A DNA stretch of 64,000 nt, taken from contig CACAYF010000001.1 of the NCBI GenBank assembly GCA_902536655.1, positions 39,627-103,626 on the forward strand, given 5' to 3'. Shown here one piece after another: positions 34,906 to 63,243 of the stretch. The stretch's first letter is position 1. Every line of letters begins with the position of its first letter. The DNA is from an uncultured Alphaproteobacteria bacterium. Its GTDB lineage: Bacteria > Pseudomonadota > Alphaproteobacteria > Methylaequorales > Methylaequoraceae. Position numbers and translations under genes: made by a program. Under the pieces are notes generated by a model. It did not search any database. It had not been told where the DNA came from and saw only the letters and a program-made list of their open reading frames with translations.

Positions 34906-35193
34906 TTATTTTTTAGGACACGTTATTTCTTTTTGGCATGTATTCCCTGGAGAACCAAGGTATATCTCTTTATCTTTTGCTCCTCTTTTCTGAGATTGAT
35001 AGGTACAAACAACGTCACCTGGAACTTTTCTTTCACTAATAAGCCTGCATTTTGGTTGAATAACAATTCTCTTTCTTCTGTCAAATGTTCCCTCTTCAGG
35101 GGCATATGTTCTACCTTTTGTTTTTGGTAAAGCGTCAACCATAAAGGGAATCATAAAACAAAATATTACATAAAGACTAAGAATTTTCCTCAT
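34906..35193 (-). CDS. small secreted Cys-containing protein, hypothetical
   Basis: Probable start at MRKILSLYVIFCF (signal peptide) inside the longer tracked ORF. Confidence 0.3.
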   Translation of the reverse strand: MRKILSLYVIFCFMIPFMVDALPKTKGRTYAPEEGTFDRRKRIVIQPKCRLISERKVPGDVVCTYQSQKRGAKDKEIYLGSPGNTCQKEITCPKK

Positions 35194-35428
35194 CAGGTTT
35201 TTCCTTATTCTGAGTATTTGTTTTTGTGGATGTTTCTTCGTCTGATCCAGGCATATAAGCAGAACCTTGAATTGACTTTGCAACAAATTTGTTCATTAAA
35301 GTATCTGATTTTTTTACATAATCTTCAAGCTCTTCTTGCAAAATTTTTTCTGCCTCTTCCTTACTATTAGCTTCGATTTCAGCTAGTCCATCAACTATCC
35401 AGTGAACTTTATAAATCATCTTCATCAT
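35177..35428 (-). CDS. hypothetical protein (83 aa)
   Basis: ORF only; acidic C-terminus. Confidence 0.25.
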   Translation of the reverse strand: MMKMIYKVHWIVDGLAEIEANSKEEAEKILQEELEDYVKKSDTLMNKFVAKSIQGSAYMPGSDEETSTKTNTQNKEKPDEENS

Positions 35429-36065
35429 TATTAGAATTAAAATATTTATTTTTTGTTAGGATTTCATTGGCTTGAACCTGAATTTCTGTTATTTTTTCCT
35501 TTTCAATTAACTTTCCAACTCTATCCCTAAATTTCATGGCTTTATATATTCCTGAACTTACAGACACAGAATACCATAAATATGATTTTTCAAAATCAAT
35601 TTCTGGAGAAATTTTTTCATACCAATAACCTAATTGAAAAGCTGATATTGGGTTGTTATCGTTAACATACTCATTTTCAAGAATTATAGGGATAGTTTTA
35701 GAAATTTTTAAAAACTCATCTTCTTCAATTTTTTCTTCAATTGATTTTATTTTATTTAAACATTTTTTATTTCCGTTTAGTGAACAAAGCCAGGTATACT
35801 TTAGTGACTTACTAAAGTCTTGGGTGGTTCCGATACCCTCAAAATACATATTTGATAAATTAAAAATTGCATCTTTATTTCCTTTTTCAGAAAGATTAAA
35901 AAAAACAATAAAAGATTTTTTGAACTCTCCATTCTCATAAAAATTTACTCCACTTTTATAGTATTCCACATCATTCAAATATTTATTTTCAGATGTTGTT
36001 GTATCTGCGAAAGATAATTCTTTAACGAAAAAAAAGATTAAAAAAACTAAAAGAAACTGTTTCAC
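35409..36065 (-). CDS. Sel1/TPR-like repeat protein, secreted
   Basis: Signal peptide; Sel1-like AIFNLSNMYFEGIGTTQDFSKSLKY repeat. Confidence 0.45.
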   Translation of the reverse strand: MKQFLLVFLIFFFVKELSFADTTTSENKYLNDVEYYKSGVNFYENGEFKKSFIVFFNLSEKGNKDAIFNLSNMYFEGIGTTQDFSKSLKYTWLCSLNGNKKCLNKIKSIEEKIEEDEFLKISKTIPIILENEYVNDNNPISAFQLGYWYEKISPEIDFEKSYLWYSVSVSSGIYKAMKFRDRVGKLIEKEKITEIQVQANEILTKNKYFNSNNDEDDL

Positions 36066-36445
36066 CTTCCCGCCATCATTATTAATTGCAAATATAAAAC
36101 TCTTAATCTAAATTTGGAATTTGGTCTTTGTTCATAAACAACAATTCTTGGTCTATCAGAATTGGGTTTTTGAAATTCTATTGACATGTCCTCTGGAAGA
36201 TATACTCCATTAAATTCCAAAGTTTTTTGAGGATCTTGTTCAAACTCTTCTTTAAATTTAGAATCTATCCAAATCCTAGCTAGAACTCTCCCAAGTATAT
36301 CTGGAAGAAACTTTCTAACTTCAGATCTATTTTTGAAATGATGAAGTTTATTAGTTATATCAAGTGTTTTCGTTTTGTCTTGATTAACAGTTATAACTTC
36401 GTTTTTTTTTGTTTTAACTGGAAGATTTTGTTGTTTTTTTTTCAT
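36062..36445 (-). CDS. NHLP (nitrile-hydratase-leader-peptide)-like domain protein
   Basis: RVLARIWIDSKFKEEFEQDPQKTLEFNGVYLPEDMSI resembles the NHLP leader consensus (AKAWxDPxFKxxLLxDPxxxLxExGxxxPxGxEV); no Cys/Ser/Thr-rich core follows. Confidence 0.35.
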   Translation of the reverse strand: MKKKQQNLPVKTKKNEVITVNQDKTKTLDITNKLHHFKNRSEVRKFLPDILGRVLARIWIDSKFKEEFEQDPQKTLEFNGVYLPEDMSIEFQKPNSDRPRIVVYEQRPNSKFRLRVLYLQLIMMAGR

Positions 36446-36531
36446 AGCTAAATTTACTATATATCTAAATCATAATTTAAAATAAATCATTAATTTATTA
36501 AAATTTTGAAAATATTGTCGTTAACTAACTT

Positions 36532-36804
36532 ATGCATAGCACGAAGAACATTATTGAATTCCCAAATTTAATAAACCAAAAGAAAGAAAAAATGGTTGAA
36601 ATTAGAGATGAAATTGAAAAGATTTTAACAAACTACGCCATTAATGAGCAAGATTTATGGGCTGTTTCACTTGCTGCTGGAAGATTTGCTTCAATCCATC
36701 TTGAAAAGTTGGATGGTGAAAAGCAGACGATTAATTTTTTCAAAAATTGCATTGAAACGCAAAGAAAGTTTGAACTAACTAGAAATTCTTCCAACATTAC
36801 CTGA
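36532..36804 (+). CDS. hypothetical protein (90 aa)
   Basis: ORF only. Confidence 0.2.
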   Translation: MHSTKNIIEFPNLINQKKEKMVEIRDEIEKILTNYAINEQDLWAVSLAAGRFASIHLEKLDGEKQTINFFKNCIETQRKFELTRNSSNIT

Positions 36805-37092
36805 AATTTGAGCTCCAGTATCAACGGAAAGTGAATTTGTTTTTAATTTACCGTCAATTACACCACTGTTAGATACCTCTAAAAGGTCAGCTGTAATATC
36901 TCCATCAACTTTTCCCTCTACTTTTATGTGTTCTGCATTAATGTTTCCATTGAATAGTGCTGTGGGTTCAATAACCACTGATCTCGCAACAATATTACCT
37001 TTAAAATTTCCTGCTATAACAACTTGGCCTTCTTTCGACTCCAATTGTCCTTCCATAAGAAGATTTTTGTTAATGTAAGTTATATCACTCAT
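36775..37092 (-). CDS. Bactofilin (DUF583) paralog 3
   Basis: Beta-helical repeats VIAGNFKGNIVARSVVIEP...GKVDGDITAD...VIDGKLKT. Confidence 0.65.
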   Translation of the reverse strand: MSDITYINKNLLMEGQLESKEGQVVIAGNFKGNIVARSVVIEPTALFNGNINAEHIKVEGKVDGDITADLLEVSNSGVIDGKLKTNSLSVDTGAQISGNVGRISS

Positions 37093-37446
37093 TTAATCCT
37101 CAGCATGCTTATTATTTTTTAACTTATTTTCATCCCAGTTATGGATGATTTTACAGTTAAGTGCTGCACCTCTATCCATCTGAAGTGATTTGTAATTAAT
37201 TTCTCCAGTAATCACAGAAGAATCTGTTAGCCAAACAGAATCAGCTTTAATTTTACCTTGATAGTTTCCAGAAATTACAACTAATTCAGATATTATTGAC
37301 CCCTCAAGTGAAGCATATTTGCCAAGTGTTACCTTATCGGATTTAATATCTGCTTCTACTCTTCCATTAATTTCTATAGTTGATGCATTAGATATTTTAC
37401 CTTTAAATATCGCTCCTCTTCCTATGATTGATTGATTATCTGCCAT
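37093..37446 (-). CDS. Bactofilin paralog 2
   Basis: IIGRGAIFKGKISNASTIEINGRVEADIKSDKVTL... bactofilin repeats. Confidence 0.65.
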   Translation of the reverse strand: MADNQSIIGRGAIFKGKISNASTIEINGRVEADIKSDKVTLGKYASLEGSIISELVVISGNYQGKIKADSVWLTDSSVITGEINYKSLQMDRGAALNCKIIHNWDENKLKNNKHAED

Positions 37447-37448
37447 TA

Positions 37449-38570: not shown

Positions 38571-38574
38571 TTAA

Positions 38575-39954: not shown

Positions 39955-39990
39955 ATTAAAGTTTGGCACTTAAATTGCTGATTAAAATGC

Positions 39991-43946: not shown

Positions 43947-44720
43947 ATGGATTTAGCTACAATAATTGGTTTTCTTGGTACAATTGGCATGATTGCTGGC
44001 GCAATGATTTCAGCTGGAGGTTTGGGCTCATACATTGATGTCCCTTCAATTTTAATAGTTTTTGGTGGTTCTTTTTTTGCTGTAATGTATACAGCACCTT
44101 TACCAGTTTATCTTGGTTCTTTCGGAGCTTTTGGTAAAGCTTTTAAACCACCTGTAAAAAAAATGGACGAACTTATTGAAAGAATAGTAGAGCTAGCAGG
44201 TATTGCAAGAAAAGATGGGATGATGGCATTAGAAGGACAAGAAACTCCAGATCCATTTTTTGACAACGGTCTTCAAATGCTAGTAGACGGAGCAGATGAG
44301 TCAAAACTTACTGTACAATTAAAAAAAGAACTTAAGGCAATGCAAGGTCGACATGAAAAAAATATTGGGTGTGCCCAATCTTGGGTAGATATAGCACCTG
44401 CAATGGGAATGATTGGAACTTTGGTTGGATTGGTTGCGATGCTTGGTAATATGGCAGATCCTAAAGCAATTGGTCCTGCAATGGCTGTTGCTCTTTTGAC
44501 TACACTTTACGGGGCTATGATAGCAAATACTATTTTTATGCCCATAGTAATAAAATTAAAAGGCTATTCAGCCTACGAAACAACTTACAGAGAAATGATT
44601 ATTACAGGATTACAATTTATTTCCAGAGGAGAGAGCCCAAGAAATATTCAGGATCAACTTGTTGCGAATCTTCCACCTAAAGAAAAGCAAAAACTTCTGG
44701 AAGCTGCAGCTGGAGGTTAA
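43947..44720 (+). CDS. motA: Flagellar motor stator protein MotA/PomA
   Basis: 4TM MotA/TolQ/ExbB family; 257 aa. Confidence 0.8.
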   Translation: MDLATIIGFLGTIGMIAGAMISAGGLGSYIDVPSILIVFGGSFFAVMYTAPLPVYLGSFGAFGKAFKPPVKKMDELIERIVELAGIARKDGMMALEGQETPDPFFDNGLQMLVDGADESKLTVQLKKELKAMQGRHEKNIGCAQSWVDIAPAMGMIGTLVGLVAMLGNMADPKAIGPAMAVALLTTLYGAMIANTIFMPIVIKLKGYSAYETTYREMIITGLQFISRGESPRNIQDQLVANLPPKEKQKLLEAAAGG

Positions 44721-44730
44721 AGTTTGAATC

Positions 44731-45915
44731 ATGGCTGAGGAAAAAACTGAAAATCAACAGACATCAAATGAAGAGGAGGAACATGAATGTCCCGAATGTC
44801 CTCCAAAAGGAGCGCCTGCTTGGATGGCAACTTTTGCTGACATGGCAACACTGTTGATGGCTTTTTTTGTTTTAATCCTATCTTTCGCAGAATTTAATGT
44901 CCCAAAATTTAAACAAATAAGTGGAAGTATGAAGAATGCTTTTGGGATACAAAGAGTTATTCCAGTTGTTGAACCACCTAAAGGAACAACAATATTATCT
45001 TTAAATTTCAGTCCGAACCCGACTCCCGCGGTTCAAGAAAATTTAAAACAACAAACAACAGAGACTGATCAACCTAAAGTAGAACTTCAAACTAAGAAAG
45101 AAGATAATACTAAGGATGATGGTGAAACTGAGGACGCAAAAGAACTTGCCAAAAATATTCAAGAAGCTATTGCAAGAGGTGATATAACCGTCGAAGCATT
45201 GGGGAGTAAAGTTGTTGTTAACTTTACACCAACAGAAGCTGACGAGAAAGAACTACCTCAACTACTTCAAGAGACTTTAAATGCTGTGGAATCTGTAAAG
45301 GCTGCATCGGGAAAATCAGATTCTGAAATTTTAATTGGTGGCTTAGAAAAGCAGCTGGCTGATCTTGCAACTGCATCTTCTCAAAAAGGTAAAAATGAGG
45401 CTGAAGGTGAAGATGGAGAAAGTGTAGGTCAATCTGAACAAAGCCAATCAGCTAAGGAGGAGGCTAAAAAAGCAGAGCTGGCTGAGGACAAATTAAAAAT
45501 TGCACTAAAACAAGAAATTGGGGAAGGCCTTGTAAATGTTGATAGAGAAGACGATAAAGTGATAATAACTGTTGGGTCTGCTGGTGCGTTCAAGTCAGGA
45601 TCTGCTGAACTTACTAATAAGGCAAGAGAGATAATGTCTAAAATAGCAGAACAAAATAAAAAAGGTAGAAGTGAGATATTGGTGATGGGTCATACGGACA
45701 ACGTGCCACTTACATTTGGGTCAAATTATAGAGACAATTGGGATCTCGCAGCAGCAAGATCTGCCTCAGTGGTTCAACAATTATCAAGAAATGATATTCT
45801 CGACCCAAAAAGAATGAAGGCCATAAGTTACGGAGAGACAAGACCAGTAGAGTCAAATGATACCACTCAGGGAAGAGCCAAAAATAGAAGAATTGAAATC
45901 GAGATAAATTATTAA
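44731..45915 (+). CDS. motB: Flagellar motor stator protein MotB (OmpA-like C-terminus; long E/K-rich linker)
   Basis: TM with conserved Asp (WMATFADMATLLMAFFVL); C-terminal OmpA motif ILVMGHTDNVP...NWDLAAARSASVVQ...NRRIEI. Confidence 0.8.
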   Translation: MAEEKTENQQTSNEEEEHECPECPPKGAPAWMATFADMATLLMAFFVLILSFAEFNVPKFKQISGSMKNAFGIQRVIPVVEPPKGTTILSLNFSPNPTPAVQENLKQQTTETDQPKVELQTKKEDNTKDDGETEDAKELAKNIQEAIARGDITVEALGSKVVVNFTPTEADEKELPQLLQETLNAVESVKAASGKSDSEILIGGLEKQLADLATASSQKGKNEAEGEDGESVGQSEQSQSAKEEAKKAELAEDKLKIALKQEIGEGLVNVDREDDKVIITVGSAGAFKSGSAELTNKAREIMSKIAEQNKKGRSEILVMGHTDNVPLTFGSNYRDNWDLAAARSASVVQQLSRNDILDPKRMKAISYGETRPVESNDTTQGRAKNRRIEIEINY

Positions 45916-49180: not shown

Positions 49181-49409
49181 TTTTCGTTAGATCTCTTATT
49201 TTATAATATAGTTTTGCAATTTGGAACCTCAACGCACCACAAAAAGAAGTAAAAGCACAAAACCAAAGAAATAAAGCAAGCAAAAAATTTTTTTCTTCGA
49301 ACACTTCAATGGCCTTAAAGTGGCATATTAATGAGCTGTAAAAAAAAGCAAGAGTAACTATTAGTTGTGAAATATTTCTATTGATCATTTTTTCTTCCAA
49401 ACTCGTCAA
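49167..49409 (-). CDS. small two-TM membrane protein (80 aa)
   Basis: Immediately downstream of flhB, overlapping it. Confidence 0.2.
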   Translation of the reverse strand: MTSLEEKMINRNISQLIVTLAFFYSSLICHFKAIEVFEEKNFLLALFLWFCAFTSFCGALRFQIAKLYYKIRDLTKNEPK

Positions 49410-50529
49410 AAATCATATCTTCAGGAATCTCTATCTCTGGTTTCTCAATTTCTTCTCCATTATCTATTTTATAAATATATGCTAAGGCAATAGCAACAGC
49501 ATTGTAAAGCTTACTCATAATTTCATCACCAATTTCAGATGTATAGTATATTGCTCTTGCCAGTTTAGGACTTTGCATTGTACCAATCTTAAGTTCTTTT
49601 CCTTTCTTAATTATGGATTCAGCAATTTTACCCCTTCCTTTGGATATAATTATAGGTGCTTTTGCGTCCCCAACCTCATATTTAAGAGCTACAGCAAAGT
49701 GTGTTGGGTTTGTAATTATTGCAGTAGCTTCTTTAAGGTTATCAACAGACGATGCTTCTTTTCTACTTTTTGTTGCAGCTTCGGCTTGAAGTTTTCTTAT
49801 TTTTTGTTTGACTTCAGGTTGTCCGTCAGTCTCTTTGTATTCGTCTTTGAGGTCTTGATGAGACATTCTAAGTTGCTTAATATAATCATACTTTTGATAA
49901 ACCACATCTATAAAAGCTATAAATGCGAGAACGATAAGGAGATATGCAATTATTTCTGGAAAAAAAGAAAAAAGTCTATTTACTGCAGAAAAAATATTAG
50001 CAGTTGTTAAGTTGACTAAATCAGATAAATTATTTTCAATCAGAAAAAAAGCTACTAGACCAAGAAGACTGACTTTTAATATAGCTTTTACTAATTCTAC
50101 TAATCCCTTAAGTGAGAATATTCTTTTTAACCCTTTTATAGGATTCATTTTTTCAAACTTCCAGTAAATTGACTTTAAGGAGAAGTTTATTCCACCGATT
50201 AAAAACTGCGTTAGTACACTTACTACCAATAGTGGTATTGAAAAAATTAAAAATACTTGAATGAAAAATTTTACAACCACAGCAACAGATTCAAGAGGAG
50301 ACTTTCCAGAGGTTAGTTCCGGACCAAAAGAAAATAGAGATTTACAAATTTTTAAAAAATCGTCTAATAGAATTGGTGCAAGATAAAATAGTAACACTCC
50401 CATGAACATTGAACTAAAAACAAAAGCTTCTTTTGAAGACAGAACTTTCCCATCCTCTTTTGCTTTTTCAAGCCTTCGGGCCGTGGGTTCCTGGGTTTTT
50501 TCTTGACTTTCGTCTTTGTCTTCAGCCAT
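49378..50529 (-). CDS. flhB: Flagellar export apparatus protein FlhB
   Basis: 4 TMs plus a cytoplasmic domain with the NPTH autocleavage motif (AIITNPTHFAVALKY). Confidence 0.85.
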   Translation of the reverse strand: MAEDKDESQEKTQEPTARRLEKAKEDGKVLSSKEAFVFSSMFMGVLLFYLAPILLDDFLKICKSLFSFGPELTSGKSPLESVAVVVKFFIQVFLIFSIPLLVVSVLTQFLIGGINFSLKSIYWKFEKMNPIKGLKRIFSLKGLVELVKAILKVSLLGLVAFFLIENNLSDLVNLTTANIFSAVNRLFSFFPEIIAYLLIVLAFIAFIDVVYQKYDYIKQLRMSHQDLKDEYKETDGQPEVKQKIRKLQAEAATKSRKEASSVDNLKEATAIITNPTHFAVALKYEVGDAKAPIIISKGRGKIAESIIKKGKELKIGTMQSPKLARAIYYTSEIGDEIMSKLYNAVAIALAYIYKIDNGEEIEKPEIEIPEDMIFDEFGRKNDQ

Positions 50530-50543
50530 TAAATTATATCCTT

Positions 50544-51359
50544 TTAATTAATGAGTATATTTTCTATCGACTCTAAAGAACTTTTGGTAAGCTCTGCAAA
50601 TGCATTTCCTATAGATTGAGAAGCTAAATACATTATGAAGAAAGCTAGAATCATAGTCACTGGGAATGCAAACGAAAACATATTTAATTGAGGAGCTGCT
50701 CTTGTTATAATTCCTATTGCAATGTTTGTTAGTAAAAGTGCTCCAACAACTGGAAGCATTATCAATCCACCTGTGTAAAACATAGCACTAGCAGCTTCTA
50801 TACCCAAACCGACAAGACCAAATGGTGGTATTCCGTCATTAATATTAAAAATTTCAAAGCTTTTAAACAAAAATTCAATCGCAATTAAATGTCCATTTAA
50901 CGATAAAAAAATAGTAATCAAGAATAAGTCTAAAATTAGACTAATTACAGGTGTTTGTCCGCCTGTATCTGGATCAACCATTTGGGAAAAACCTAATCCA
51001 GTAGTAGCTGCTATTTTCTCTCCAGCCAAACTTGCTGCCGCAAACCATATTGTTAGTGTTAAACCCAATGATAATCCAATCAAAGCTTCTGCAATTACTA
51101 CAATAACAAGGTTATCAAGAATTTGTTCTGATATTTGAATATCAGAGAGATACCCAAAATAAAAAAATGAAATCACTAAAGAAAAAATTATTTTTACATT
51201 CAAAGGAATGACTCTTGAACCAAAAAAAGGGCTTGATATGAAAAATGCTGATAATCTTATCGAACATAAAAAGAATTTAAATAAGTACTCAATAAGAGAG
51301 TTTAATTCGAGTCCTGGTAAGGCATCCATAGGACTGTAAAAAGGTAATGGAATAAACAT
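50544..51359 (-). CDS. fliR: Flagellar export apparatus protein FliR
   Basis: Polytopic; position and size. Confidence 0.75.
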   Translation of the reverse strand: MFIPLPFYSPMDALPGLELNSLIEYLFKFFLCSIRLSAFFISSPFFGSRVIPLNVKIIFSLVISFFYFGYLSDIQISEQILDNLVIVVIAEALIGLSLGLTLTIWFAAASLAGEKIAATTGLGFSQMVDPDTGGQTPVISLILDLFLITIFLSLNGHLIAIEFLFKSFEIFNINDGIPPFGLVGLGIEAASAMFYTGGLIMLPVVGALLLTNIAIGIITRAAPQLNMFSFAFPVTMILAFFIMYLASQSIGNAFAELTKSSLESIENILIN

Positions 51360-51625
51360 TAATTTATTCCTGAAATTGTATCAAAAATAAATTGAAAATA
51401 ATCAGTTAAACTTACTAAAAGAAAATTAGCTAAGAAGCCTATTGCAAAGATAACTATGACAATTTTTGGAACAAAACTAAGTGTCATTTCCTGGATTGAA
51501 GTAGCTGCTTGTATAATTCCAATAACCAAGCCAATAGCAAGAGCCGCACCCAGAAATGGACCACTAGAAATCAAAACTTGGTAAAAAGCTAATCTTATCA
51601 TTTCAACATTTTGATCAAATCCCAT
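51359..51625 (-). CDS. fliQ: Flagellar export apparatus protein FliQ
   Basis: 88 aa, 2 TM, FliQ-like sequence. Confidence 0.8.
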   Translation of the reverse strand: MGFDQNVEMIRLAFYQVLISSGPFLGAALAIGLVIGIIQAATSIQEMTLSFVPKIVIVIFAIGFLANFLLVSLTDYFQFIFDTISGIN

Positions 51626-51651
51626 TACCGATTACTCCTAAAACACTAAAT

Positions 51652-52398
51652 TCACGAGAACGTTCCAACCAGAGACCCCACAGTCATTGACCAACCATCA
51701 ACCAAAACAAAAAGGAGTAGTTTAAAGGGTAGGGCAATTAACATTGGAGATAACATCATCATACCAAGTGACATCAAAACAGATGCTACGACCATATCAA
51801 TTACCAAAAAAGGTAAAAAAAGCAAAAAGCCAATCTGAAATGCAGTTTTTAATTCACTCGTAATATATGCTGGCAAAACAATGTAAAAAGGAATTTGAGA
51901 ACTATTTTCAAACTTTCCCTCATTTGCCATTTCAGCGAACATCAATAAGTCATTCTTTCGTGTATTTTTAACCATGAATTTTTTTAACTCACCCCCGCCA
52001 CTTTCAACTGCCTCAGATAAATTCATTTCTCCATTATTATAAGGTTCGGAAACATCAGAGTAAATTTTATTAAAGGTGGGAGCCATTACAAAAAAAGTAA
52101 GAAATAAGGATATAGCAACTAAAATTTGGTTAGGCGGTGTTTGCTGTGTGCCAAGAGCTTGTCTTAAAATAGACATAACAATTATAATTCTTGTAAAAGC
52201 AGTCATTCCTAAAACGAGTGAAGGCAGAATTGTTAAAGCTGTCATCAACGCTAAAATTTTAAGAGACAAAGAATATGTTTTTGTACCATTTTCTGACTCA
52301 GTAATAGTTAATGCTTCTAATCCGTCAGGAGCCATTTGAGAAAACCCAAAAAATGGAAAAAGAATAATAATTAAAAACAAAAAATTAATTTTTTTCAT
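51652..52398 (-). CDS. fliP: Flagellar export apparatus protein FliP
   Basis: Signal peptide; LTALTILPSLVLGMTAFTRIIIV...ALGTQQTPP FliP signature. Confidence 0.85.
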   Translation of the reverse strand: MKKINFLFLIIILFPFFGFSQMAPDGLEALTITESENGTKTYSLSLKILALMTALTILPSLVLGMTAFTRIIIVMSILRQALGTQQTPPNQILVAISLFLTFFVMAPTFNKIYSDVSEPYNNGEMNLSEAVESGGGELKKFMVKNTRKNDLLMFAEMANEGKFENSSQIPFYIVLPAYITSELKTAFQIGFLLFLPFLVIDMVVASVLMSLGMMMLSPMLIALPFKLLLFVLVDGWSMTVGSLVGTFS

Positions 52399-52711
52399 TT
52401 CTTAGCCTATTTTCAAATACTTTCTCAAGATTGTTACCTTTAAGACTGTTGTTTTTTATTTCTGTCAATAAAGAACCTGAATTTTTCCCAGAAATAAAAA
52501 GATAATCTTTATTATCTAAATTTAAGATTAAAGCTCTATCACCCTGTCCCAGTAGGGTAACTTCAGATACTTTCATTCTTTTCTTTGAATTTATGGTTCT
52601 TGAGATTATGTGTTTGTTCTTTTTTATATAATACAAGCCTACAAAAAGCAGAGCTAAAAATCCTAACACGAGTAAATAGTTTGATAAACTTGGACCTACA
52701 TATTCTGTCAT
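52385..52711 (-). CDS. fliO: FliO-like small single-TM protein
   Basis: Position between fliN and fliP; N-terminal TM. Confidence 0.5.
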   Translation of the reverse strand: MTEYVGPSLSNYLLVLGFLALLFVGLYYIKKNKHIISRTINSKKRMKVSEVTLLGQGDRALILNLDNKDYLFISGKNSGSLLTEIKNNSLKGNNLEKVFENRLRNEKN

Positions 52712-52744
52712 TTTCCCCTCTTGATTAGTTTATACAAGAGAGAT

Positions 52745-52759
52745 GCAAAAACCTTGCCG
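52745..52759 (-). promoter_or_regulatory. Candidate internal sigma-54 promoter in the 127-bp fliN-fliO gap
   Basis: Minus strand CGGCAAG-GTTT-TTGC, ~22 nt upstream of the fliO start. Confidence 0.35.
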
Positions 52760-52838
52760 AAACAATAGTATTCGCTTTAAGTAACTGATTTAATTGATGA
52801 ATTATTGATTGAAAAAGAAGATGTCAATTTGCTGACAA

Positions 52839-53240
52839 TTATAAGTTTTCAATTAGTTCTTCTGGGGTAGCAACTTCAGTAAACCTTATACCAAATTTTT
52901 CACCAACCATAACAACTTCGCCTTTAGCAATTTTTGTCCCATTTGCTAAAATATCTAAGGCGTCTCCAGCTAATCTGTCAAGTTCAACAACAGATCCTTC
53001 ATTTAATCTTAGCAAATCTTTGATTTTAATTTCAGTATTTCCAACTTCAACGGTGAGTTTTACTTCGATGTTCTCCAAAAGTCTTAAATTACTTACTGCT
53101 GCAGCATTTTTATCTGAAGTCTTTGAGGATTCTGTCTCAGATTTATTAGCTTGGTTTTCAGCTGAGCCTTCAGGTGCCTTAGTTTCTTCCTGAGCTTGTT
53201 CGGTCTGATTTTTATCTTTTTCTGCTGTTTCTGCATTCAT
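52839..53240 (-). CDS. fliN: Flagellar motor switch protein FliN
   Basis: C-terminal SpoA domain LDRLAGDALDILANGTKIAKGEVVMVGEKFGIRFTEV. Confidence 0.8.
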   Translation of the reverse strand: MNAETAEKDKNQTEQAQEETKAPEGSAENQANKSETESSKTSDKNAAAVSNLRLLENIEVKLTVEVGNTEIKIKDLLRLNEGSVVELDRLAGDALDILANGTKIAKGEVVMVGEKFGIRFTEVATPEELIENL

Positions 53241-53251
53241 AATTTTTCTCC

Positions 53252-54229
53252 TTAATTATTTCGTGTAGCAAGCTTTACTGAAGCATTGCCGTTTAGTTCT
53301 CCCATTTCAGCCTTAAAGTATTTTTGATTTTCAACATAAAAATCCACTTTATCCTCTAAATTTACGTTTAATGTATCTCCTGCCTTCATTCTAAGCAATT
53401 TAGACATTGAGACAACCGGTTCGCATAAATTACTTTTGACTAATAAGGGAATTTCTAATATTGCTTTTTCTAACTTATCCCGCCACGTCATGTTAGATTC
53501 GACTACATCAGATTGAACTCTAGATCTCAGTAAAGATGAAACTGGTTTAAGTGTTTGAAGTGGATACACTACATCAAAAGACATTGAGTCAATATTAGGT
53601 AACTGCATTACAAATGAACATACTATAACTAAATCTGTAGATTCTACAAAAGCAGCAAACTGGGGATTTTGCTCTCTACTTTGAAATTTGATTGAAATAG
53701 GCGTTAAATCTTTCCAACATTGTTCAAGAACCTGGGAGATTCCATTATTTATGACTTCGATTATTTTTTCTTCGGTTGCAGTAAATTCGGTTCTTTCAGC
53801 ATCATTAACCTCCAATTTTCCTCCATATCTACTACTGGTACAAAGACTAACAAAAGATGGTGGCAAAACAGTCAGCATGGAACCTCTTAACTCGTCAATT
53901 CTACTGTTTGTTAAACTCATAAATGCATCTAAACCAGAACTGTATTCTTCGAACGATTTAACTTCTGGGGGAAACGAACTTATTCTAGGTTGAACCCTTA
54001 GCAAAGGGAGAAATACTCCTCTAACTGTTCTTGCGAACCTCTCGTTTATAAGTCTTAAAGCGTAATAATCTCCTAAAAGTGAAAGATCATCTGAGCCGAA
54101 ATTAAATTTTTTGTACTCAATCGCAGTCCCATCTTTAACAGTAGTTGATGCACTTAAATCGCCCGATTTAAGTCCATCCATCAACGCGTTGACTTCTTCA
54201 GTAGATAATTTCCTTGATGGTTCAGACAT
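53252..54229 (-). CDS. fliM: Flagellar motor switch protein FliM
   Basis: N-terminal LSTEEVNALMDG (CheY-binding-like) and FliM middle domain. Confidence 0.8.
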   Translation of the reverse strand: MSEPSRKLSTEEVNALMDGLKSGDLSASTTVKDGTAIEYKKFNFGSDDLSLLGDYYALRLINERFARTVRGVFLPLLRVQPRISSFPPEVKSFEEYSSGLDAFMSLTNSRIDELRGSMLTVLPPSFVSLCTSSRYGGKLEVNDAERTEFTATEEKIIEVINNGISQVLEQCWKDLTPISIKFQSREQNPQFAAFVESTDLVIVCSFVMQLPNIDSMSFDVVYPLQTLKPVSSLLRSRVQSDVVESNMTWRDKLEKAILEIPLLVKSNLCEPVVSMSKLLRMKAGDTLNVNLEDKVDFYVENQKYFKAEMGELNGNASVKLATRNN

Positions 54230-54241
54230 AATTTTTATTTC

Positions 54242-54874
54242 CTATTGTACTACAAATGAGGTAAAATGTACATTTTCTATTCCACCAAAACCTTCAACTT
54301 TCACAAGAACCTCATTAATTCCATCTCTCAATGATTCAGCTAAGTTATTTTTACCCTCTTTACCGGCAATATCTTCAGAAGAAAATTCGGACATGATGGT
54401 TAATATTTCTGATCTAAGAGCAAGCTGATGACTCTCCACATTTACCATTACTTGTTCGTCATATTGAGTTGAAACTCCAACTGAGAGTTGAAGAAACTTT
54501 TTTGAGCCCTTTAAATTAGCTGTGAAATTTCCAGGAAATTCATAATACGTTGTAGTAAAGATTTCTTCTTCAGGTGTGATCTTTGGAATCTTCTTTGGAC
54601 CTGCAGGACAGTTGCCTTCTTCGTCTTTTTCTTCTTCCGCGCATTCAGCAGCAGCTTCATCAATAGTTTCTTCATCTTCATTTTTTGATGGTTCAGGATT
54701 TTCTTTTTTTTCAATAATTTGAGATATCTCAGCTGATGGATCTGTATCTTCTCCCCCACCCATAAAAATTCCAACTCCAATACCTGTTCCTAAAAGAACT
54801 ATGCCACCTACAATCATCAAAATTAATTTTAAGGGTGACTTCTTTTCATTTTCTTGATTATTCTCTTCTGCCAT
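54242..54874 (-). CDS. fliL: Flagellar basal body-associated protein FliL
   Basis: N-terminal TM (LKLILMIVGGIVLLGTGIGVGIF); size and position. Confidence 0.65.
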   Translation of the reverse strand: MAEENNQENEKKSPLKLILMIVGGIVLLGTGIGVGIFMGGGEDTDPSAEISQIIEKKENPEPSKNEDEETIDEAAAECAEEEKDEEGNCPAGPKKIPKITPEEEIFTTTYYEFPGNFTANLKGSKKFLQLSVGVSTQYDEQVMVNVESHQLALRSEILTIMSEFSSEDIAGKEGKNNLAESLRDGINEVLVKVEGFGGIENVHFTSFVVQ

Positions 54875-54901
54875 GATTCTCTCCTTAATATTTTAAATTA
54901 A

Positions 54902-56212
54902 TTAGGCATTCACATCAATATTATGATTACTAATTTTTTGATTTTTATTTTCAACATTTTTTTTATTCTTTTTAGAAATCTCATTGCTCGACAATAAATT
55001 TTCTCTTTCATTTTTTTGGTTAAAATAATTACTGTTGTTGTTTTCATTATTCATATTGCTTGAGAAACTTTTACTTTCTTTATCAATTGATTCTAAAAGT
55101 TTTGGAAGGTTGTCATTAAGAAGACTTACAACATCTTGATTCTCTGAACCAATGTTAACGGTTGTTACACTATTTTTTACAGAAACCTCCAAGTTTAATT
55201 TTCCTAAATTTTTGGGTTTAACCTGAATTTCTAATTTGTTTACACCATTATTAACTGCATTTTTAACAATTCTTGAGAATTTTTCGCCCCAGCTACTCTC
55301 TAATAAATCTAAAAAGATTTGTCCTTTATTGTGCATCTGATTGTCTTTAGTTTCCGGAGTTTTTGAAAAATCTTTATTGCTGATTTCTCTTTTTTGACCT
55401 ATTTGATTTTCTCTTGTTTTCTTCACAATTTGAGAAAAATTAGTATTATTTCTATTCTCCATTTTGACTTGTTTTGCAAGAAGGTCGTTTTGTTCGATTT
55501 CATCTTTTGCTGAAACTTTAAATTGTTTATTTTTTTTGTTTATTTTCTTGTTAATAATCGCAGTTTCAAAATTTGAATTCTTGGCTTTGTAATTAAATTC
55601 ATTTTGCTGCTTCAATACTTTACTATCAATTTGACTTTTATTTTCTGTAAAATATTTTGGATCGTGTTCATTTTTCTTAATTTTTTTTGAAGATGTAGGA
55701 TCTTTAATTATATTTATAACAATTTTTTTTGAATTATCATTTTTAAACGCTAAATCAGAATCATTAGAATCCAATTTATTCTCAACAGCTATTTTTTTTC
55801 CCCCTGTTATAAAATTTTTATTTAATAATGATTTTGGATTTTGATTTAAACTGTTTGGATTAGCATTTTTTGTTTGGTCCAAAGGTTCGACTATACCAAT
55901 TTCTTTATAAAATACCTCTATTAGTGATTTTGCAGTCTCATATTCAGAATCTGTGACCACTAATTTATTTTTCTGCTCGGAAGTTACTTTTAACAAACTA
56001 TTTTCAGAGATATTTTTACTTACATTCAAAAATTCTTCGGTATCAGTTTTTTGTAAGACTACATCTTTCAGCAAATTTTTATTTTCAGGATCTAGACTAT
56101 TTGTATTTATTAGTGCAAAGAGTTCAGCAAATAGCTCATTTGTTTTTTCAGAATGTAAAGTTGAGTTTACGAAATTTATGTTTTTGCTAGTATCATTTTT
56201 AATTGCAACCAT
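54902..56212 (-). CDS. fliK: Flagellar hook-length control protein FliK-like
   Basis: Low-complexity N/K-rich body; C-terminal Flg_hook-like region LEIQVKPKNLGKLNLEVSVKNSVTTVNIGSEN...; position between fliJ and fliL. Confidence 0.5.
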   Translation of the reverse strand: MVAIKNDTSKNINFVNSTLHSEKTNELFAELFALINTNSLDPENKNLLKDVVLQKTDTEEFLNVSKNISENSLLKVTSEQKNKLVVTDSEYETAKSLIEVFYKEIGIVEPLDQTKNANPNSLNQNPKSLLNKNFITGGKKIAVENKLDSNDSDLAFKNDNSKKIVINIIKDPTSSKKIKKNEHDPKYFTENKSQIDSKVLKQQNEFNYKAKNSNFETAIINKKINKKNKQFKVSAKDEIEQNDLLAKQVKMENRNNTNFSQIVKKTRENQIGQKREISNKDFSKTPETKDNQMHNKGQIFLDLLESSWGEKFSRIVKNAVNNGVNKLEIQVKPKNLGKLNLEVSVKNSVTTVNIGSENQDVVSLLNDNLPKLLESIDKESKSFSSNMNNENNNSNYFNQKNERENLLSSNEISKKNKKNVENKNQKISNHNIDVNA

Positions 56213-56255
56213 ATCTGCCCCTTGTTAAAGCAAATGTGCAATTATAATGCCACTA

Positions 56256-56669
56256 TTAAAGAGAAACTGAATTTTTAGGTTTGAAATAATTTTCTTTTTT
56301 TAATTCTTTTACTTTATCTTCTTGAATTTTAATAAATTTCTTTTTTTCACTTATTTTTTCTTTTTGTTTTTCAATTTTTACTATTTCTTTGAGATTATTA
56401 GTAATTTCGTCTAACACATGATTTTCTCTATTTTTTGAAACCTCAAGTTTATTTATTAAATTGCTAGTAAAAGATGCTTTGAATTTTAAATCTGAACCTG
56501 AAAGTTCACCAGATTCCTCTACGGCGCTTTGATTTAACATTTCATTCAACGTTTCTTTTACAAAATCTAACCTTTTTTTTTCATCATTTAGTGTAGATAA
56601 ATTGTTAAGCAACTTATTTTTCTTTAATTTTTTAAGAGTTAAAAAAATATCATATTTATTTTTTCTCAT
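56256..56669 (-). CDS. fliJ: Flagellar export chaperone FliJ-like coiled-coil protein
   Basis: 137 aa coiled coil immediately downstream of fliI. Confidence 0.5.
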   Translation of the reverse strand: MRKNKYDIFLTLKKLKKNKLLNNLSTLNDEKKRLDFVKETLNEMLNQSAVEESGELSGSDLKFKASFTSNLINKLEVSKNRENHVLDEITNNLKEIVKIEKQKEKISEKKKFIKIQEDKVKELKKENYFKPKNSVSL

Positions 56670-56673
56670 GTCA

Positions 56674-57993
56674 TCAGTTAATCTTCTTCAAGCTTGTTAT
56701 GCTATCTTCAAAACTTGATTTCATTTTAAAATGCTGTTTTATATGACTGCAAATTTTATTCCAATTATTTAATGCACTATCAATTTCAGGGTTTTGCCCT
56801 TGGGTATATCCCCCCATAAGAATGAGATCTTTGTTTTCTTGGTATATGGAGTATAATTTTTTTACTAATTCAGACTGATTTTGATGTTCTTCGGTAACAA
56901 TAGAATTCATTACTCTACTTAATGATTGATTTAAATCAATTGCAGGAAAAATTCCAAGTTGTGCAAGCTCTCTAGATAATACAATATGTCCATCTAATAT
57001 TGCTCTGGCAGTGTCTACTACAGGATCGTTCGTATCATCAGAATCTGCCAGTATTGTATAGAAACTTGTTATAGTTCCTTCATTTTTTGAACCGGCTCCA
57101 GTTCTTTCGATTAGATTTGGAATCATTGAAATTACAGATGTTGGGTATCCTTTTGAAGTAGGTTGTTCACCGAGTGCCAACCCTACCTCTCGTTTCGCAT
57201 GAGCTATTCTGGTAAGAGAGTCCATAATAAGCAAAACGTTTTTTCCTTTAGACCTAAAATGTTCTGCAATTGAAGTTGCTCTTTCTGCTCCTTTAATTCT
57301 TAATAATGGCGATTTGTCAGCTGGCACGGCTACGGTGACAGTTCTTTTTCTTGATTCGTCATTTAATATTTCTGATACAAAATTGCCTAACTCTCTTCCT
57401 CTTTCTCCGATCAGTGCTACAACAACAACATCAGCGTCAGTAAACTTAGTCATCATTCCGAGTAAAATAGATTTTCCAACTCCAGAACCTGCAATAATTC
57501 CAAGCCTTTGACCTCTTCCCACAGTAAAAAGTGAATTGATCGCTCTAATACCAACATCTAGCACTTCATTTATTGGTTTTTTTGACATTGGGTTATTAGG
57601 TTTTCCATTAATTGGCCATGTTTCTGCAGAGTCATTTATTTTTGCGCCTCCATCTATTGGATTCCCAAAAGCATCTAAAACCCTTCCAAGTAAATGAGAA
57701 CCCACAATTACGTCATTTGATGAATTTAAGACTCTTATTTCAGATCCTAAAATTATGTTTGCATTATTTTCATGAACGGCAATAATATTTTTATTTTCTT
57801 TGAAACCAATGATTTCTCCCGTGACTATAGATTTGTCATTACATTCTATTTCACATGTTGTACCGATGGGTGAGGGAAATGCTTCACATTCGACAACTTT
57901 ACCGTCATATTTTGATGTTTTACTCTTATAGATCCTGTTTTGAGATATAGTATGTGAATCTAAAGTCTGAAGTATTTTTTTTGCTATAACCAT
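56674..57993 (-). CDS. fliI: Flagellum-specific ATP synthase FliI
   Basis: Walker A GQRLGIIAGSGVGKS; F1/T3SS ATPase family. Confidence 0.85.
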   Translation of the reverse strand: MVIAKKILQTLDSHTISQNRIYKSKTSKYDGKVVECEAFPSPIGTTCEIECNDKSIVTGEIIGFKENKNIIAVHENNANIILGSEIRVLNSSNDVIVGSHLLGRVLDAFGNPIDGGAKINDSAETWPINGKPNNPMSKKPINEVLDVGIRAINSLFTVGRGQRLGIIAGSGVGKSILLGMMTKFTDADVVVVALIGERGRELGNFVSEILNDESRKRTVTVAVPADKSPLLRIKGAERATSIAEHFRSKGKNVLLIMDSLTRIAHAKREVGLALGEQPTSKGYPTSVISMIPNLIERTGAGSKNEGTITSFYTILADSDDTNDPVVDTARAILDGHIVLSRELAQLGIFPAIDLNQSLSRVMNSIVTEEHQNQSELVKKLYSIYQENKDLILMGGYTQGQNPEIDSALNNWNKICSHIKQHFKMKSSFEDSITSLKKIN

Positions 57994-58017
57994 TTATGTT
58001 TAATTCTAAATAAAAGT

Positions 58018-58884
58018 TTATTTTTGAGAATTTAATTTGGTATCTTCAAGATCTTTCTCAATTTCATCAGGTATTGAAAATTTAATTTTTTTAGAAACAA
58101 TGTCACTCATCTCTATTGATCCTGATTTTATTCTCATATCGCCTCGTTCAAGTTTTGCGTCTTGATTGATTTCAAATGACAAACTTAAATTATTTTTGCT
58201 GTTGTAAGCTTTTATAGATTCAAAATCTTTTGGATTTAAAAAAACTACAATATTTTCAATTGAGTTTTCAACTGAATTAACAACTTGCTTAATTTTTTCT
58301 TGAAATAATTTATTGTTATTATCTATCTCGTAACCTAAAACTTCTTTTGATAAATTTGAAAGTAAATTCGTTATTGATTTGTTTAATTCATTAACAAATT
58401 CTGGCGTCATTTTAAAAATATTATCAGTTGTATTTTTAAGTGTCACAGCAAGCGATTTTTCTCCTTTTTGAAGCTCTTCTGTAGTTTTTTTTACTCCAAG
58501 TTTATAACCATTGTTGTAATATTGTTTTGCTAAGTCATTGGCTAATTTTTGTGCTTCTACTTCTGTATATATTTTTTCATTTTCTGGTTTTTTTTCATCG
58601 ATAACATCACTTGTTTGTTGCTTTTCGTTACTTTCAGAAACTTCATTTAAATCTTTTGTTACTTCTTCTTTTTTTTCAGATGTTATTTCTTGATTTTTTT
58701 GTGCAAGGGATAATGGAGTAATTTTTTTAAACAAATTAGTAATGTTAGAAGTGATATCTGACTCTTTTACGAAGTCTTTATTACTTTTATTTAATAAACT
58801 AACAATTTCTTCAGTGCTAAGTGCTCCAGAAATTTTTTCATCACTTTTTTGCTGAGTTTCAGTTTTGTCTGTGAGTGGCATCAT
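58018..58884 (-). CDS. fliH: Flagellar assembly protein FliH
   Basis: Position between fliG and fliI; E/K-rich N-terminus plus FliH-like C-terminus. Confidence 0.55.
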   Translation of the reverse strand: MMPLTDKTETQQKSDEKISGALSTEEIVSLLNKSNKDFVKESDITSNITNLFKKITPLSLAQKNQEITSEKKEEVTKDLNEVSESNEKQQTSDVIDEKKPENEKIYTEVEAQKLANDLAKQYYNNGYKLGVKKTTEELQKGEKSLAVTLKNTTDNIFKMTPEFVNELNKSITNLLSNLSKEVLGYEIDNNNKLFQEKIKQVVNSVENSIENIVVFLNPKDFESIKAYNSKNNLSLSFEINQDAKLERGDMRIKSGSIEMSDIVSKKIKFSIPDEIEKDLEDTKLNSQK

Positions 58885-59930
58885 ACGAAGTCATCTCCAC
58901 CTCTTCCAGCAAGCACAATTGTTCCTTCGTCTGACATAGTTCTTGCTACATTTATGATAGCCTTCTGAGCCTCTTGAACTTCTGTAAGTCTCAGTGGGCC
59001 AAGTACTTCCATTTCATCTCTGATGTTTGCCGAAGCTCTTTGAGACATGCACGAGAAAATCTTATCTTTTAATTCGTCTTCTGTTCCTTTAAGCGCAATT
59101 ATAAGAATTTCTTGATCAACATTTCTTAATAAAGTTTGCATGCTTCTATCATCCATTAAAATTAACGTGTCAAAGGTAAACATACTTTCCTGAATTTCTT
59201 TAGCTAAATTTCTATCTTTTTCACCTAATGTTTTCATGATTCTTTGTTCCATATTTTGCTTTGTAAAATTCATTATTGATGCAGCATCTTTTATTCCACC
59301 GACTGAGGAGGCTCGCAATGAAGTGTTTGTTTTAAATTTAAGTTGCATAACCCTTTCTAATTCCGCCAAAGCGTCTGGTTGAACTGTTTCTAGAGTTGCA
59401 ATGCGATGAATAATATCAGATTGAGTTTCTTCGGGTAGCAAAGTTAAAACATCTGCTGCAACACCGGGCTCTAAATACGAAATTATCAATGCCATTATTT
59501 GAGGATGTTCATCAGAAATTAATTCTGCAACTGATCTGGCATCCATCCAATCTAAAATTTCTATTGGTTTGTCACTTTCAGTAGGGGTAATTCTTCCAAG
59601 AACAGACTGAGCTTTATTTTCGCCTAAGGCTTTTGTCATTACATTTCTTATGTAGTTTGTAGAACCCATTCCCAAGTCAGTTTGTGTTTTTATGATGGCT
59701 AAAAATTCGTCTAAAACTCTATTTACAGTTTCTTGATCTAAACCTTGAACATTGTACATCTCTTTACCGAGTTGCTGCACTTCTTTTGGACCCAAATTTT
59801 TTAAAATTTCTGAAGCCTCTTCCTCGCCTAAAAGCATCATCAAAATAGCACATTTTTGAGTGCTTGTTAATTGTTCATATTGCGACTTTTCTTCTTCTTC
59901 TTTATTTTCTTCCTTAGCTTTTTCAGCCAT
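58881..59930 (-). CDS. fliG: Flagellar motor switch protein FliG
   Basis: FliG N, M and C domains; CAILMMLLGEEEASEILKNL; C-terminal torque helix. Confidence 0.85.
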   Translation of the reverse strand: MAEKAKEENKEEEEKSQYEQLTSTQKCAILMMLLGEEEASEILKNLGPKEVQQLGKEMYNVQGLDQETVNRVLDEFLAIIKTQTDLGMGSTNYIRNVMTKALGENKAQSVLGRITPTESDKPIEILDWMDARSVAELISDEHPQIMALIISYLEPGVAADVLTLLPEETQSDIIHRIATLETVQPDALAELERVMQLKFKTNTSLRASSVGGIKDAASIMNFTKQNMEQRIMKTLGEKDRNLAKEIQESMFTFDTLILMDDRSMQTLLRNVDQEILIIALKGTEDELKDKIFSCMSQRASANIRDEMEVLGPLRLTEVQEAQKAIINVARTMSDEGTIVLAGRGGDDFV

Positions 59931-59954
59931 TTGAGTACTCCTTATTAATTTATA

Positions 59955-61679: not shown

Positions 61680-61696
61680 AATTATTTCCTTTTAAT

Positions 61697-62035
61697 TTAA
61701 ACAGGCATGTTCATAATGTCTTTATATGCGCTCAAGACTTTATTTCTTACGTTTAAAGTCATTTGAAAACCTAAACTAGACAATTGTTGTTGAATCATAA
61801 CTTTAGTCAAATCGTTCTCTATACCAAGCTCAAAGTTTTTCGTCAATTCAGCGCTTTGTTTCTGGGTATCAGAAACCTCTTGAATCGCTGACTTAATATT
61901 ATCCAAAAAACCACCATCTTGTGGTTCCATTATTTTTGGAGACAGATTTGCAACCTCTTCTTGAACTTTCTTTATTTCATTTTGGTTGTTTGGTGTGGTA
62001 ACTGTTGGTTTTAAATTAGTAAGATTTGGTTTCAT
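61697..62035 (-). CDS. fliE: Flagellar hook-basal body protein FliE
   Basis: C-terminal VRNKVLSAYKDIMNMPV FliE signature. Confidence 0.8.
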   Translation of the reverse strand: MKPNLTNLKPTVTTPNNQNEIKKVQEEVANLSPKIMEPQDGGFLDNIKSAIQEVSDTQKQSAELTKNFELGIENDLTKVMIQQQLSSLGFQMTLNVRNKVLSAYKDIMNMPV

Positions 62036-62051
62036 GATTTCTCCTTCAAAA

Positions 62052-63209: not shown

Positions 63210-63243
63210 ATTTAAATCCTTTATTTTCGTTTTCAATCTAAAA

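Follow-up and report, generated by a model that had tools for sequence, protein, structure and literature searches.

What would the leader domain of a modified-peptide precursor be doing in a protein that carries no peptide to be modified? This question is raised by a four-gene operon in a window of 64 kb (~28% GC), the term window referring here to the whole stretch of uncultured alphaproteobacterial DNA that was analysed. The first product of the operon, 127 aa in length, contains a segment (LARIWIDSKFKEEFEQDPQKTLEFNGVYLPEDMSI, residues 55-89) that resembles the nitrile hydratase leader peptide (NHLP) domain, and to our knowledge NHLP domains are known only as leaders in the precursors of peptides made ribosomally and modified after translation (RiPPs). 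A first-pass annotation had noticed the segment and described four co-oriented open reading frames (ORFs), which indeed exist on the minus strand at 34906-36445, and it left the choice between a repurposed domain, for instance a putative secretion or assembly tag, and a degenerate RiPP locus. As described below, the gene in question is conserved and previously unannotated, travels with a secreted Sel1-repeat partner in flagellar gene clusters, and is also carried by phages. The operon and its upstream flank are laid out as follows.

36062..36445, minus strand: NHLP-fold core-less protein, 127 aa, first gene of the operon
35409..36065, minus strand: secreted Sel1-repeat protein, 218 aa, GTG start
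35177..35428, minus strand: p83, small acidic protein, 83 aa as listed
34906..35193 (listed ORF 34906..35286, 126 aa), minus strand: small secreted basic 4-Cys protein, 95 aa from its most likely start, M32
36446..36531, no strand: spacer of 86 bp between the NHLP-like gene and the divergent 90-aa ORF
36532..36804, plus strand: conserved 90-aa ORF without a family match

An NHLP fold without a core peptide

The NHLP model TIGR03793 matches the 127-aa protein over residues 49-96 with E=3.3e-7; the profile check suggested in the first-pass annotation thus returns a significant match, although its 30.1 bits remain below the curated cutoff of 50.9. Weak matches to TIGR03795, NF038399, TIGR04509, TIGR01323 and PF02979 fall on the same stretch of the protein. 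In the reciprocal direction, a profile of 21 family sequences was run against 1.84 billion cluster representatives and returned only 179 clusters at E<=1e-3, with bona fide tandem NHLP precursors ('...VAGG' followed by a core peptide) ranking below the family at E 1e-9 to 1e-5. Alignment of the family with genuine NHLP domains by hhalign gives a probability of 97.4% (E=1.6e-11) over residues 51-107 of the window protein, and among PDB sequences the family profile finds nitrile hydratase (NHase) alpha (1v29_A, 1.8e-5) and an NHLP leader (8tb1_A, 3.6e-5); searching with the mixed alignment A3 as the profile gave no more than 15 proteins. Judged by these profile comparisons, the resemblance to NHLP is far beyond chance yet under the family threshold of TIGR03793.

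An AlphaFold2 model built from 64 sequences is confident at residues 30-120 (predicted local distance difference test, pLDDT, about 90) and describes a domain at residues ~40-120 made of three helices (40-60, 62-70, 72-78) and three strands (87-92, 100-106, 113-120). Two hallmarks of the NHLP family, an NHase-alpha-like motif 1 and a structured helical leader domain, are both found. Residues 1-28 are basic and predicted to be disordered, with an NLPV motif inside; in most clades a motif of the form [LIVMF]-P-[AVTIL]-x (NLPV, NLPA, ALVPV, LPAV, FPVV) stands before a variable disordered linker. This motif occurs in 25/72 representatives as against 5.7 +/- 2.3 in shuffled N-termini, and it is missing from the MVAEE clade. 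By its homology and predicted fold, the 127-aa protein is a new stand-alone, core-less family inside the NHase-alpha/NHLP fold superfamily, the members of which are annotated as 'hypothetical protein' in every public source, with none named NHLP.

By definition (Haft et al. 2010, PMC2887384), an NHLP precursor has motif 1, a motif 2 that closes with Gly-Gly and a hypervariable core, and its gene is linked to those of a C39-ABC exporter and maturases. In the solved NHLP leaders (PMC12537861), three helices form a bundle and two strands a sheet, and the disordered tail ends in Gly-Gly with hydrophobic residues at -4, -7 and -12. In the family described here, a conserved third strand and tail take the place of the disordered leader end. 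The protein stops 20 residues past the shared domain with a near-invariant tail, ...YLQL(I/V)MMAG(R/K), which reads YLQLIMMAGR in the window copy; counted from the Ala-Gly of this copy, which ends in ...RVLYLQLIMMAGR, position -4 is Met, -7 is Gln and -12 is Arg, so only -4 is hydrophobic. A Gly-Gly cleavage site is absent from the window protein and family-wide, Ala-Gly occupying -3/-2 in 50 of 72 representatives and Arg or Lys the last position in 55. There is no core peptide either, as in 71/72 full-length representatives the sequence stops 0-2 residues after the profile does; the cores of the NHLP family measure about 27 aa on average and are often rich in Cys/Ser/Thr, and these three residues (Cys+Ser+Thr) make up 9% of the last 20 positions across the 72 full-length representatives. 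A match drawn by eye between the tail 'LQLIMMAG-R' and the NHLP leader end 'LEQVAGG' was rejected because hhalign stops at residue 107, leaving the tail unaligned to motif 2 and the C-terminal 20 residues specific to the family.

Conservation in the NHLP-like protein is highest over the C-terminal 80 residues. Between marine and freshwater clades, 24 columns within residues 51-126 are invariant at about 30% overall identity, and within the window clade the protein is 75-98% identical, compared with 67-94% for RpoN and 53-96% for the Sel1 partner. The family is single-copy, strongly conserved and represented by hundreds of orthologues. The only locus seen with more than one NHLP-fold copy carries two divergent tandem paralogues (155 and 146 aa; L070 8001-9249) in a non-flagellar context of RlmN, NUDIX and enoyl-CoA hydratase genes. 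Essentially all window ORFs of >=100 aa were compared with Pfam, and no YcaO, radical S-adenosylmethionine (radical-SAM), LanM/LanB or C39-peptidase ABC exporter gene was found in the 64 kb; neither a maturase nor a C39 exporter occurs in the Pfam-annotated flanks of relatives. The first-pass annotation had stated that a Gly-Gly site and a Cys/Ser/Thr-rich core were lacking and that no cyclodehydratase, radical-SAM enzyme or C39-ABC exporter lay nearby; the former is true of the family as well as of the window protein, and the latter extends to the entire window. As the fold is the only defining NHLP feature that the sequence displays, the 127-aa protein is, on these criteria, not a RiPP precursor. 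A homologous domain in a conserved, single-copy, core-less family with no RiPP machinery nearby supports the first alternative, a repurposed domain; the degenerate RiPP locus is unsupported, since a decaying precursor would not keep a near-invariant C-terminus, here shared across several alphaproteobacterial lineages and phages.

Operon partners, neighbourhoods and phage copies

The four minus-strand ORFs, which run from 36445 to 34906, overlap at all three junctions: the GTG start of the Sel1 gene shares bases with the TGA of the preceding NHLP-like gene (as GTGA), the p83 ORF overlaps the Sel1 stop codon, and the 4-Cys ORF overlaps that of p83. The true start of p83 is probably its fourth codon (35419), and M32 of the listed ORF (35193) is most likely that of the 4-Cys protein, giving 95 aa. 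Since the divergent 90-aa ORF stands between the operon and three bactofilin genes, the four genes form a transcription unit of their own. The 90-aa ORF is detected by tblastn at 48-93% identity in all 27 window-clade loci that cover the region (L001-L028 minus the truncated L014) and has no family match in Pfam or NCBIfam; at its 3' end it shares 30 bp with the last bactofilin gene. In the 86-bp spacer, an alignment of 12 loci reveals a -10-like TATAWAAT box just 5' of the NHLP-like ATG and an invariant ACGnC element ~10 nt upstream of the start codon of the 90-aa ORF, and a simple promoter scan gave nothing above shuffled expectation.

The most widely conserved partner of the NHLP-like gene is the Sel1 gene. 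Its single 218-aa sequence is sub-threshold for Pfam Sel1 (E=8.9e-6, 26.5 bits vs 30.7), and the profile of its family matches solved Sel1 proteins at 3.9e-27, establishing the presence of Sel1 repeats (PF08238) and bearing out the earlier description of a Sel1-repeat protein; an N-terminal hydrophobic, signal-like segment is present and the isoelectric point (pI) is 5.1. The p83 protein has an invariant core, K.HWI.DG...E...AE...L...A..QG.aY.pG (alignment A7), a pI of 4.3-5.1, and neither a hydrophobic segment nor a signal peptide. Its single-sequence structure model was discarded as one implausible long helix (predicted template modelling score, pTM, 0.36). The last protein of the operon was at first described as a small secreted two-Cys protein, which needs correction as four cysteines are invariant in its mature part, together with G27, Y30, E34, R50 and Y65 (alignment A8); it has a signal-like N-terminus and a pI of 8.4-9.8. 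No relative of p83 or of the 4-Cys protein was found in Pfam, NCBIfam or the PDB. The operon would therefore combine two proteins without signal peptides, the basic NHLP-fold protein and the acidic p83, with two that carry them, the acidic Sel1 protein and the basic 4-Cys protein; hydropathy, the only guide to location used here, would place the first two in the cytoplasm and the others in the periplasm.

A quick neighbour-joining tree without support values divides the family into two groups: a module type, in which the Sel1 gene comes directly after the NHLP-like gene, and a solo type, in which the NHLP-like gene stands alone. The Sel1 gene follows directly in the window clade (28/28), the intermediate clade (7/7), L071, L098, L075, L100 and the MVAEE clade (77/80). 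The p83 gene is found in the window clade (26/28) and the intermediate clade (6/7) only, the 4-Cys gene is distributed likewise, and both are absent from the MVAEE and RALVPV clades, where the NHLP-like/Sel1 pair stays. The co-occurrence of all four genes, for which a check had been proposed, is thus seen in the window and intermediate clades, whereas elsewhere only the pair is kept.

The block RpoN / SLT-M23 / three bactofilins / module / K+ channel / phosphoenolpyruvate carboxylase (PEPC) is conserved in 28/28 window-clade loci. The intermediate clade is a GC-richer marine clade (37-52% GC, 7/7 loci) with the order flhA-flhF-flhG-fliA-p137 / flgF-like(-) / NHLP-like-Sel1-p83-4Cys / rpoN(-), these identities being confirmed by Pfam. 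In the RALVPV clade (L071, L098), the neighbours are fliS, a FliL-like gene, flgM, flgA, FlgT_N and LPP20, of which the FliL-like gene counts for little as its matches are sub-threshold only (E=1.5e-4 and 0.15). The MVAEE clade, abundant in marine samples, has flagellar genes in 72/80 metagenomic loci, and all long loci show the order rpoN .. motA-motB .. sigma-54 activator(-) / NHLP-like-Sel1(+) / flgM-flgA-flgP-like(-) / flhA-flhF-flhG-fliA. Signal peptides seen on some MVAEE NHLP-like representatives were artefacts of wrong or extended gene calls, and the NHLP-like protein of this clade has none. The NHLP-like and Sel1 pair is the ancient core of the module, lying among polar-flagellum genes in four lineages (stator, sigma-54 activator, flgM/flgA, flhA-F-G-fliA and rod genes), and as the flagellar genes beside it vary by lineage, the linkage has outlasted rearrangements. 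In the flhA-flhF-flhG-fliA clusters of the marine clades, the ~137-aa protein p137, which has no Pfam match, always follows fliA (L030 4612-5025, L029/L031/L033/L066, L127 17889-18251) and is an unannotated flagellar-locus gene in its own right.

The source organism is itself flagellated and the NHLP operon sits in a flagellar super-locus, a gene neighbourhood that is the decisive context missing from the first-pass annotation. In addition to RpoN, a transglycosylase and an M23 peptidase, the following were identified in the window by Pfam.

43947..45915, plus strand: stator pair MotA (257 aa) and MotB (394 aa, MotB_plug + OmpA)
49378..63236, minus strand: flagellar cluster of sigma-54 activator, FliE, FliF, FliG, FliH, FliI, (FliJ), FliK, FliL, FliM, FliN, FliO, FliP, FliR and FlhB

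The MotAB pair is 7.5 kb from the NHLP module, and its MVAEE-clade orthologues (65% identity for MotA, 48-52% for MotB) are found ~3-4 kb upstream of the NHLP-like/Sel1 pair. A non-motile SAR11, as Pelagibacteraceae record labels and the 28% GC would suggest, with MotAB as an oddity was considered and rejected, since Pfam scans show the full flagellar cluster in the window. Close orthology of the window MotA/MotB to those of the freshwater clade was also rejected, window MotA being undetected by tblastn against the MotA encoded beside freshwater solo genes. The window MotA is PomA-sized and its MotB unusually long, and a 307-aa protein without a family match comes next (43947-46840, +). Between motB and the solo NHLP-like gene, 17 freshwater loci (L048 5506-5745 and 16 others) share a conserved same-strand ORF of ~80 aa that has no Pfam match.

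Two divergent NHLP-fold subfamilies are present on viral-looking contigs (12 and 9 IMG/VR contigs, up to 183 kb), in contexts that contain ribonucleotide reductase, 5'-3' exonuclease, 2-oxoglutarate-Fe(II) (2OG-Fe(II)) oxygenase and runs of tiny ORFs. The neighbours of these copies match PHROGs (DnaB-like helicase 3e-130, phrog_850 2e-136, tail fibres), and a Foldseek search of BFVD gives two hits (E about 1e-7), both labelled 'uncultured Caudovirales phage'. The viral members are confined to the divergent subfamilies, as IMG/VR contains no homologue of the window protein itself, and no NHLP-like homologue was found in GenBank phages (INPHARED). In the tree, the viral sequences form two clades, the first sister to the solo clade from freshwater and the second next to the module group, a placement which suggests that phages captured the NHLP-fold gene at least twice. 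In clade A (L072 8545-9405) the phage gene adjoins a cupin gene, and in clade B (L073/L088 6820-9771) genes for an aminotransferase, a DUF454 membrane protein and a 2OG-Fe(II) oxygenase; both are typical auxiliary-gene neighbourhoods.

Candidate roles of the module

In nitrile hydratase, the alpha subunit docks towards the beta subunit with this same fold. The NHLP fold of RiPP leaders docks towards maturases (PMC12537861), and in the family described here it would likewise act as a compact protein-docking module, to which the third beta-strand, the flexible C-terminal tail and, in most clades, the proline-containing N-terminal motif would add extra binding epitopes. The preferred reading, which we hold to be evenly balanced between right and wrong, is that a repurposed protein-docking domain makes up the cytoplasmic portion of an accessory module of the polar flagellum. 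The NHLP-like protein would take part in assembly, placement or motor/stator control from the cytoplasmic face of the polar flagellar machinery, and in the periplasm the Sel1 protein, with or without the 4-Cys protein, would build a scaffold of the kind that TPR/Sel1 proteins provide in other polar motors. It is by its gene neighbourhood that the module is placed in the flagellar set, and any physical interaction or role in motility is a prediction. A bolder reading, speculative and on balance unlikely, would make the NHLP-fold and Sel1 proteins undescribed polar-motor components or regulators in abundant marine alphaproteobacteria, either as cytoplasmic adaptor and periplasmic stator scaffold or as an exported basal-body part. 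Two or more phage captures of the gene would then have served to manipulate one and the same target in the host, for example by stopping motility or flagellar synthesis during infection, and the family would represent the free-standing ancestral state, or a reversion, of the 'protein-like leaders' of RiPPs.

Several observations weigh against a flagellar docking role. The module has no homology to any characterised flagellar protein, and orthology of the Sel1 partner to MotX (NF047621) was rejected: the model asks for 330 bits and scores no copy above 25.8, the match covers a single repeat out of register (profile 126-193 vs residues 44-112), and the window's own Sel1 copy is not matched. No consistent sigma-54 (GG-N10-GC) or sigma-28 (TAAA-N15-GCCGATAA) promoter is found upstream in 19 loci, though the consensus used may not be that of these taxa. 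Among solo-type genes, the freshwater clade labelled Hyphomicrobiales/Beijerinckiaceae has motA-motB and a hook/rod gene alongside in only 12/33 loci, the other 21/33 having PMT_2/TauE/GGT neighbours and no flagellar ones, and further solo genes lie among housekeeping genes (L067, L070, L097 (Parvibaculales), L099). As the phage copies also travel without Sel1, p83 or 4-Cys partners, the solo housekeeping loci and the phages together indicate that the domain needs no flagellar locus. In the same quick, unsupported tree, the window clade is nested within the intermediate clade, so the four lineages are not fully independent and part of the flagellar linkage could be inherited gene order. Lastly, a cytoplasmic docking role offers no account of why cytoplasmic-looking and periplasmic proteins should be co-translated.

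A somewhat unlikely alternative is that the module is unrelated to the flagellum, serving envelope or periplasmic homeostasis or acting as a small regulator with another target, and that its neighbourhood is ancestral gene order. It fits the solo genes in housekeeping contexts and the 21/33 freshwater loci without flagellar neighbours, the phage copies and the lack of a recognised flagellar-class promoter, and also the nearest neighbours in the window, which are bactofilins, an M23 peptidase, a transglycosylase, a K+ channel and PEPC and not flagellar genes. However, wherever the flanks of a module-type lineage are informative, flagellar genes surround the pair, and those immediately adjacent differ (flgF/fliA, sigma-54 activator/flgM, FliL-like/flgM), a linkage that inertia alone would not predict. 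The translational coupling of cytoplasmic-looking and periplasmic proteins would be accounted for if the NHLP-like protein were a flagellar type III secretion substrate, exported via its disordered N-terminus through the flagellar export gate with p83 as cytoplasmic chaperone, and then captured in the periplasm by the Sel1 scaffold and the 4-Cys protein so that a structure associated with the basal body is built or capped. A small acidic protein without a signal peptide encoded beside a basic partner is the usual signature of a secretion chaperone, and p83 has these properties; the N-terminal 28 residues are predicted to be disordered, and the module adjoins flhA, flgF or fliS, depending on the lineage. 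This route is nevertheless distinctly unlikely, given that p83 and the 4-Cys protein are missing in the MVAEE and RALVPV clades where the pair is retained, that solo copies occur in non-flagellar contexts and in phages, and that the domain is a well-folded globule in which no known export or gate-recognition motif was identified.

A return to the RiPP world is disfavoured and very improbable: here the protein would still be a RiPP-type substrate, a scaffold or precursor with its extreme C-terminus modified, extended or cleaved by enzymes encoded elsewhere in the genome, or else a decaying remnant of such a locus. The homology to NHLP leaders is genuine, the tail ends in Ala-Gly plus one residue at roughly the position of the leader end, and the genes of RiPP precursors may lie far away from those of the maturases (Haft et al. 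2010, PMC2887384). Set against this, there is no Gly-Gly site and only -4 is hydrophobic by the criteria of PMC12537861; a core is lacking, with 71/72 members stopping 0-2 residues from where the profile ends; the C-terminus is not hypervariable but conserved above all other parts; there is one gene copy per locus; no maturase or C39 exporter lies in the 64 kb or in any annotated flank; the tail and NHLP motif 2 stay unaligned in hhalign; and the conserved partners are non-enzymatic. A free-standing, conserved NHLP fold without a peptide product implies a cellular role of the fold outside natural-product biosynthesis. For genome miners, TIGR03793-like matches that end in ...MMAG(R/K) constitute a class of false positives, and flagellar biology gains an unannotated gene pair, extended to a four-gene module in some clades, in the loci of very abundant marine bacterioplankton. 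The phage-borne copies further suggest a host target worth hijacking.

Other window features and known systems

Several other features of the window were recorded. Three tandem bactofilin genes (36775-37871 (-), Pfam E 1e-21 to 1e-23) are divergent from an operon at 38028-40611 (+) that encodes a 180-aa protein whose C-terminus is hydrophobic, along with an M23 peptidase and an SLT transglycosylase; this bactofilin and M23 module of cell-shape type, within the flagellar super-locus, is kept across the window clade and absent beside the NHLP module in other clades. An FGE-sulfatase/DinB_2 protein, a histidine-specific SAM methyltransferase (Methyltransf_33, E=2e-97) and a class-V aminotransferase are encoded in a row at 20026-23392 (+), which looks like an ergothioneine- or ovothiol-type thiol-histidine biosynthesis cluster. 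The glycan-biosynthesis region at 2800-19035 contains several GT4 glycosyltransferases, two AsnB-type amidotransferases, a sulfatase, PhyH, a DegT aminotransferase, a GFO/hexapeptide fusion and a UDP-GlcNAc 2-epimerase, and may serve surface polysaccharide or flagellin glycosylation; the context of its AsnB homologues is not that of a lasso peptide. A match to the mitochondrial-fission ELM1 family (PF06258, E=2e-53) at 24480-25418 (+) adjoins PAP2 and lipid A acyltransferase genes.

In comparison to known systems, the NHLP leaders of proteusin, lanthipeptide and TOMM (thiazole/oxazole-modified microcin) precursors (TIGR03793; solved as 8tb1 MprE and 9cjx DprE2) have a motif 2 with Gly-Gly, a core, a maturase and an exporter, whereas the family described here has none of these and carries a conserved third beta-strand and invariant tail instead of the disordered leader end. 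NHLP leaders are multi-copy with hypervariable ends; the present family is single-copy and strongly conserved, is found in a flagellar-locus context with phage-borne copies, and falls under the TIGR03793 cutoff. The NHase alpha subunit (TIGR01323 / PF02979) has a metal-binding Cys cluster and a catalytic half, both of which are missing from the window protein, which has zero cysteines; TIGR01323 gives it 13.5 bits against a cutoff of 249.85, placing it outside NHase alpha, and the window holds no NHase beta-subunit gene. NHLP-Burk (TIGR03795, BMA_0021/0022) is another family of the NHLP clan in which the classic Gly-Gly motif is missing and a long conserved region is followed by a short suffix only (Haft 2010, PMC2887384). 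In these respects it is like the family described here, and TIGR03795 weakly matches residues 50-108 of the 127-aa protein (E=0.0045, 17.3 bits vs cutoff 41); however, NHLP-Burk genes adjoin TOMM cyclodehydratase genes, none of which are present here.

On the periplasmic side, the relevant systems are the TPR/Sel1 stator scaffolds of polar motors, namely MotX of Vibrio and PflA/PflB of Campylobacterota. We know of no MotX-like system with an NHLP-fold protein, and the Sel1 partner is no MotX orthologue, scoring <=25.8 bits with a model that requires 330. It is nevertheless like MotX in its predicted Sec-type secretion, in its size of ~210 aa and its architecture, and in being encoded in a polar-flagellum locus near a PomA-sized MotA.

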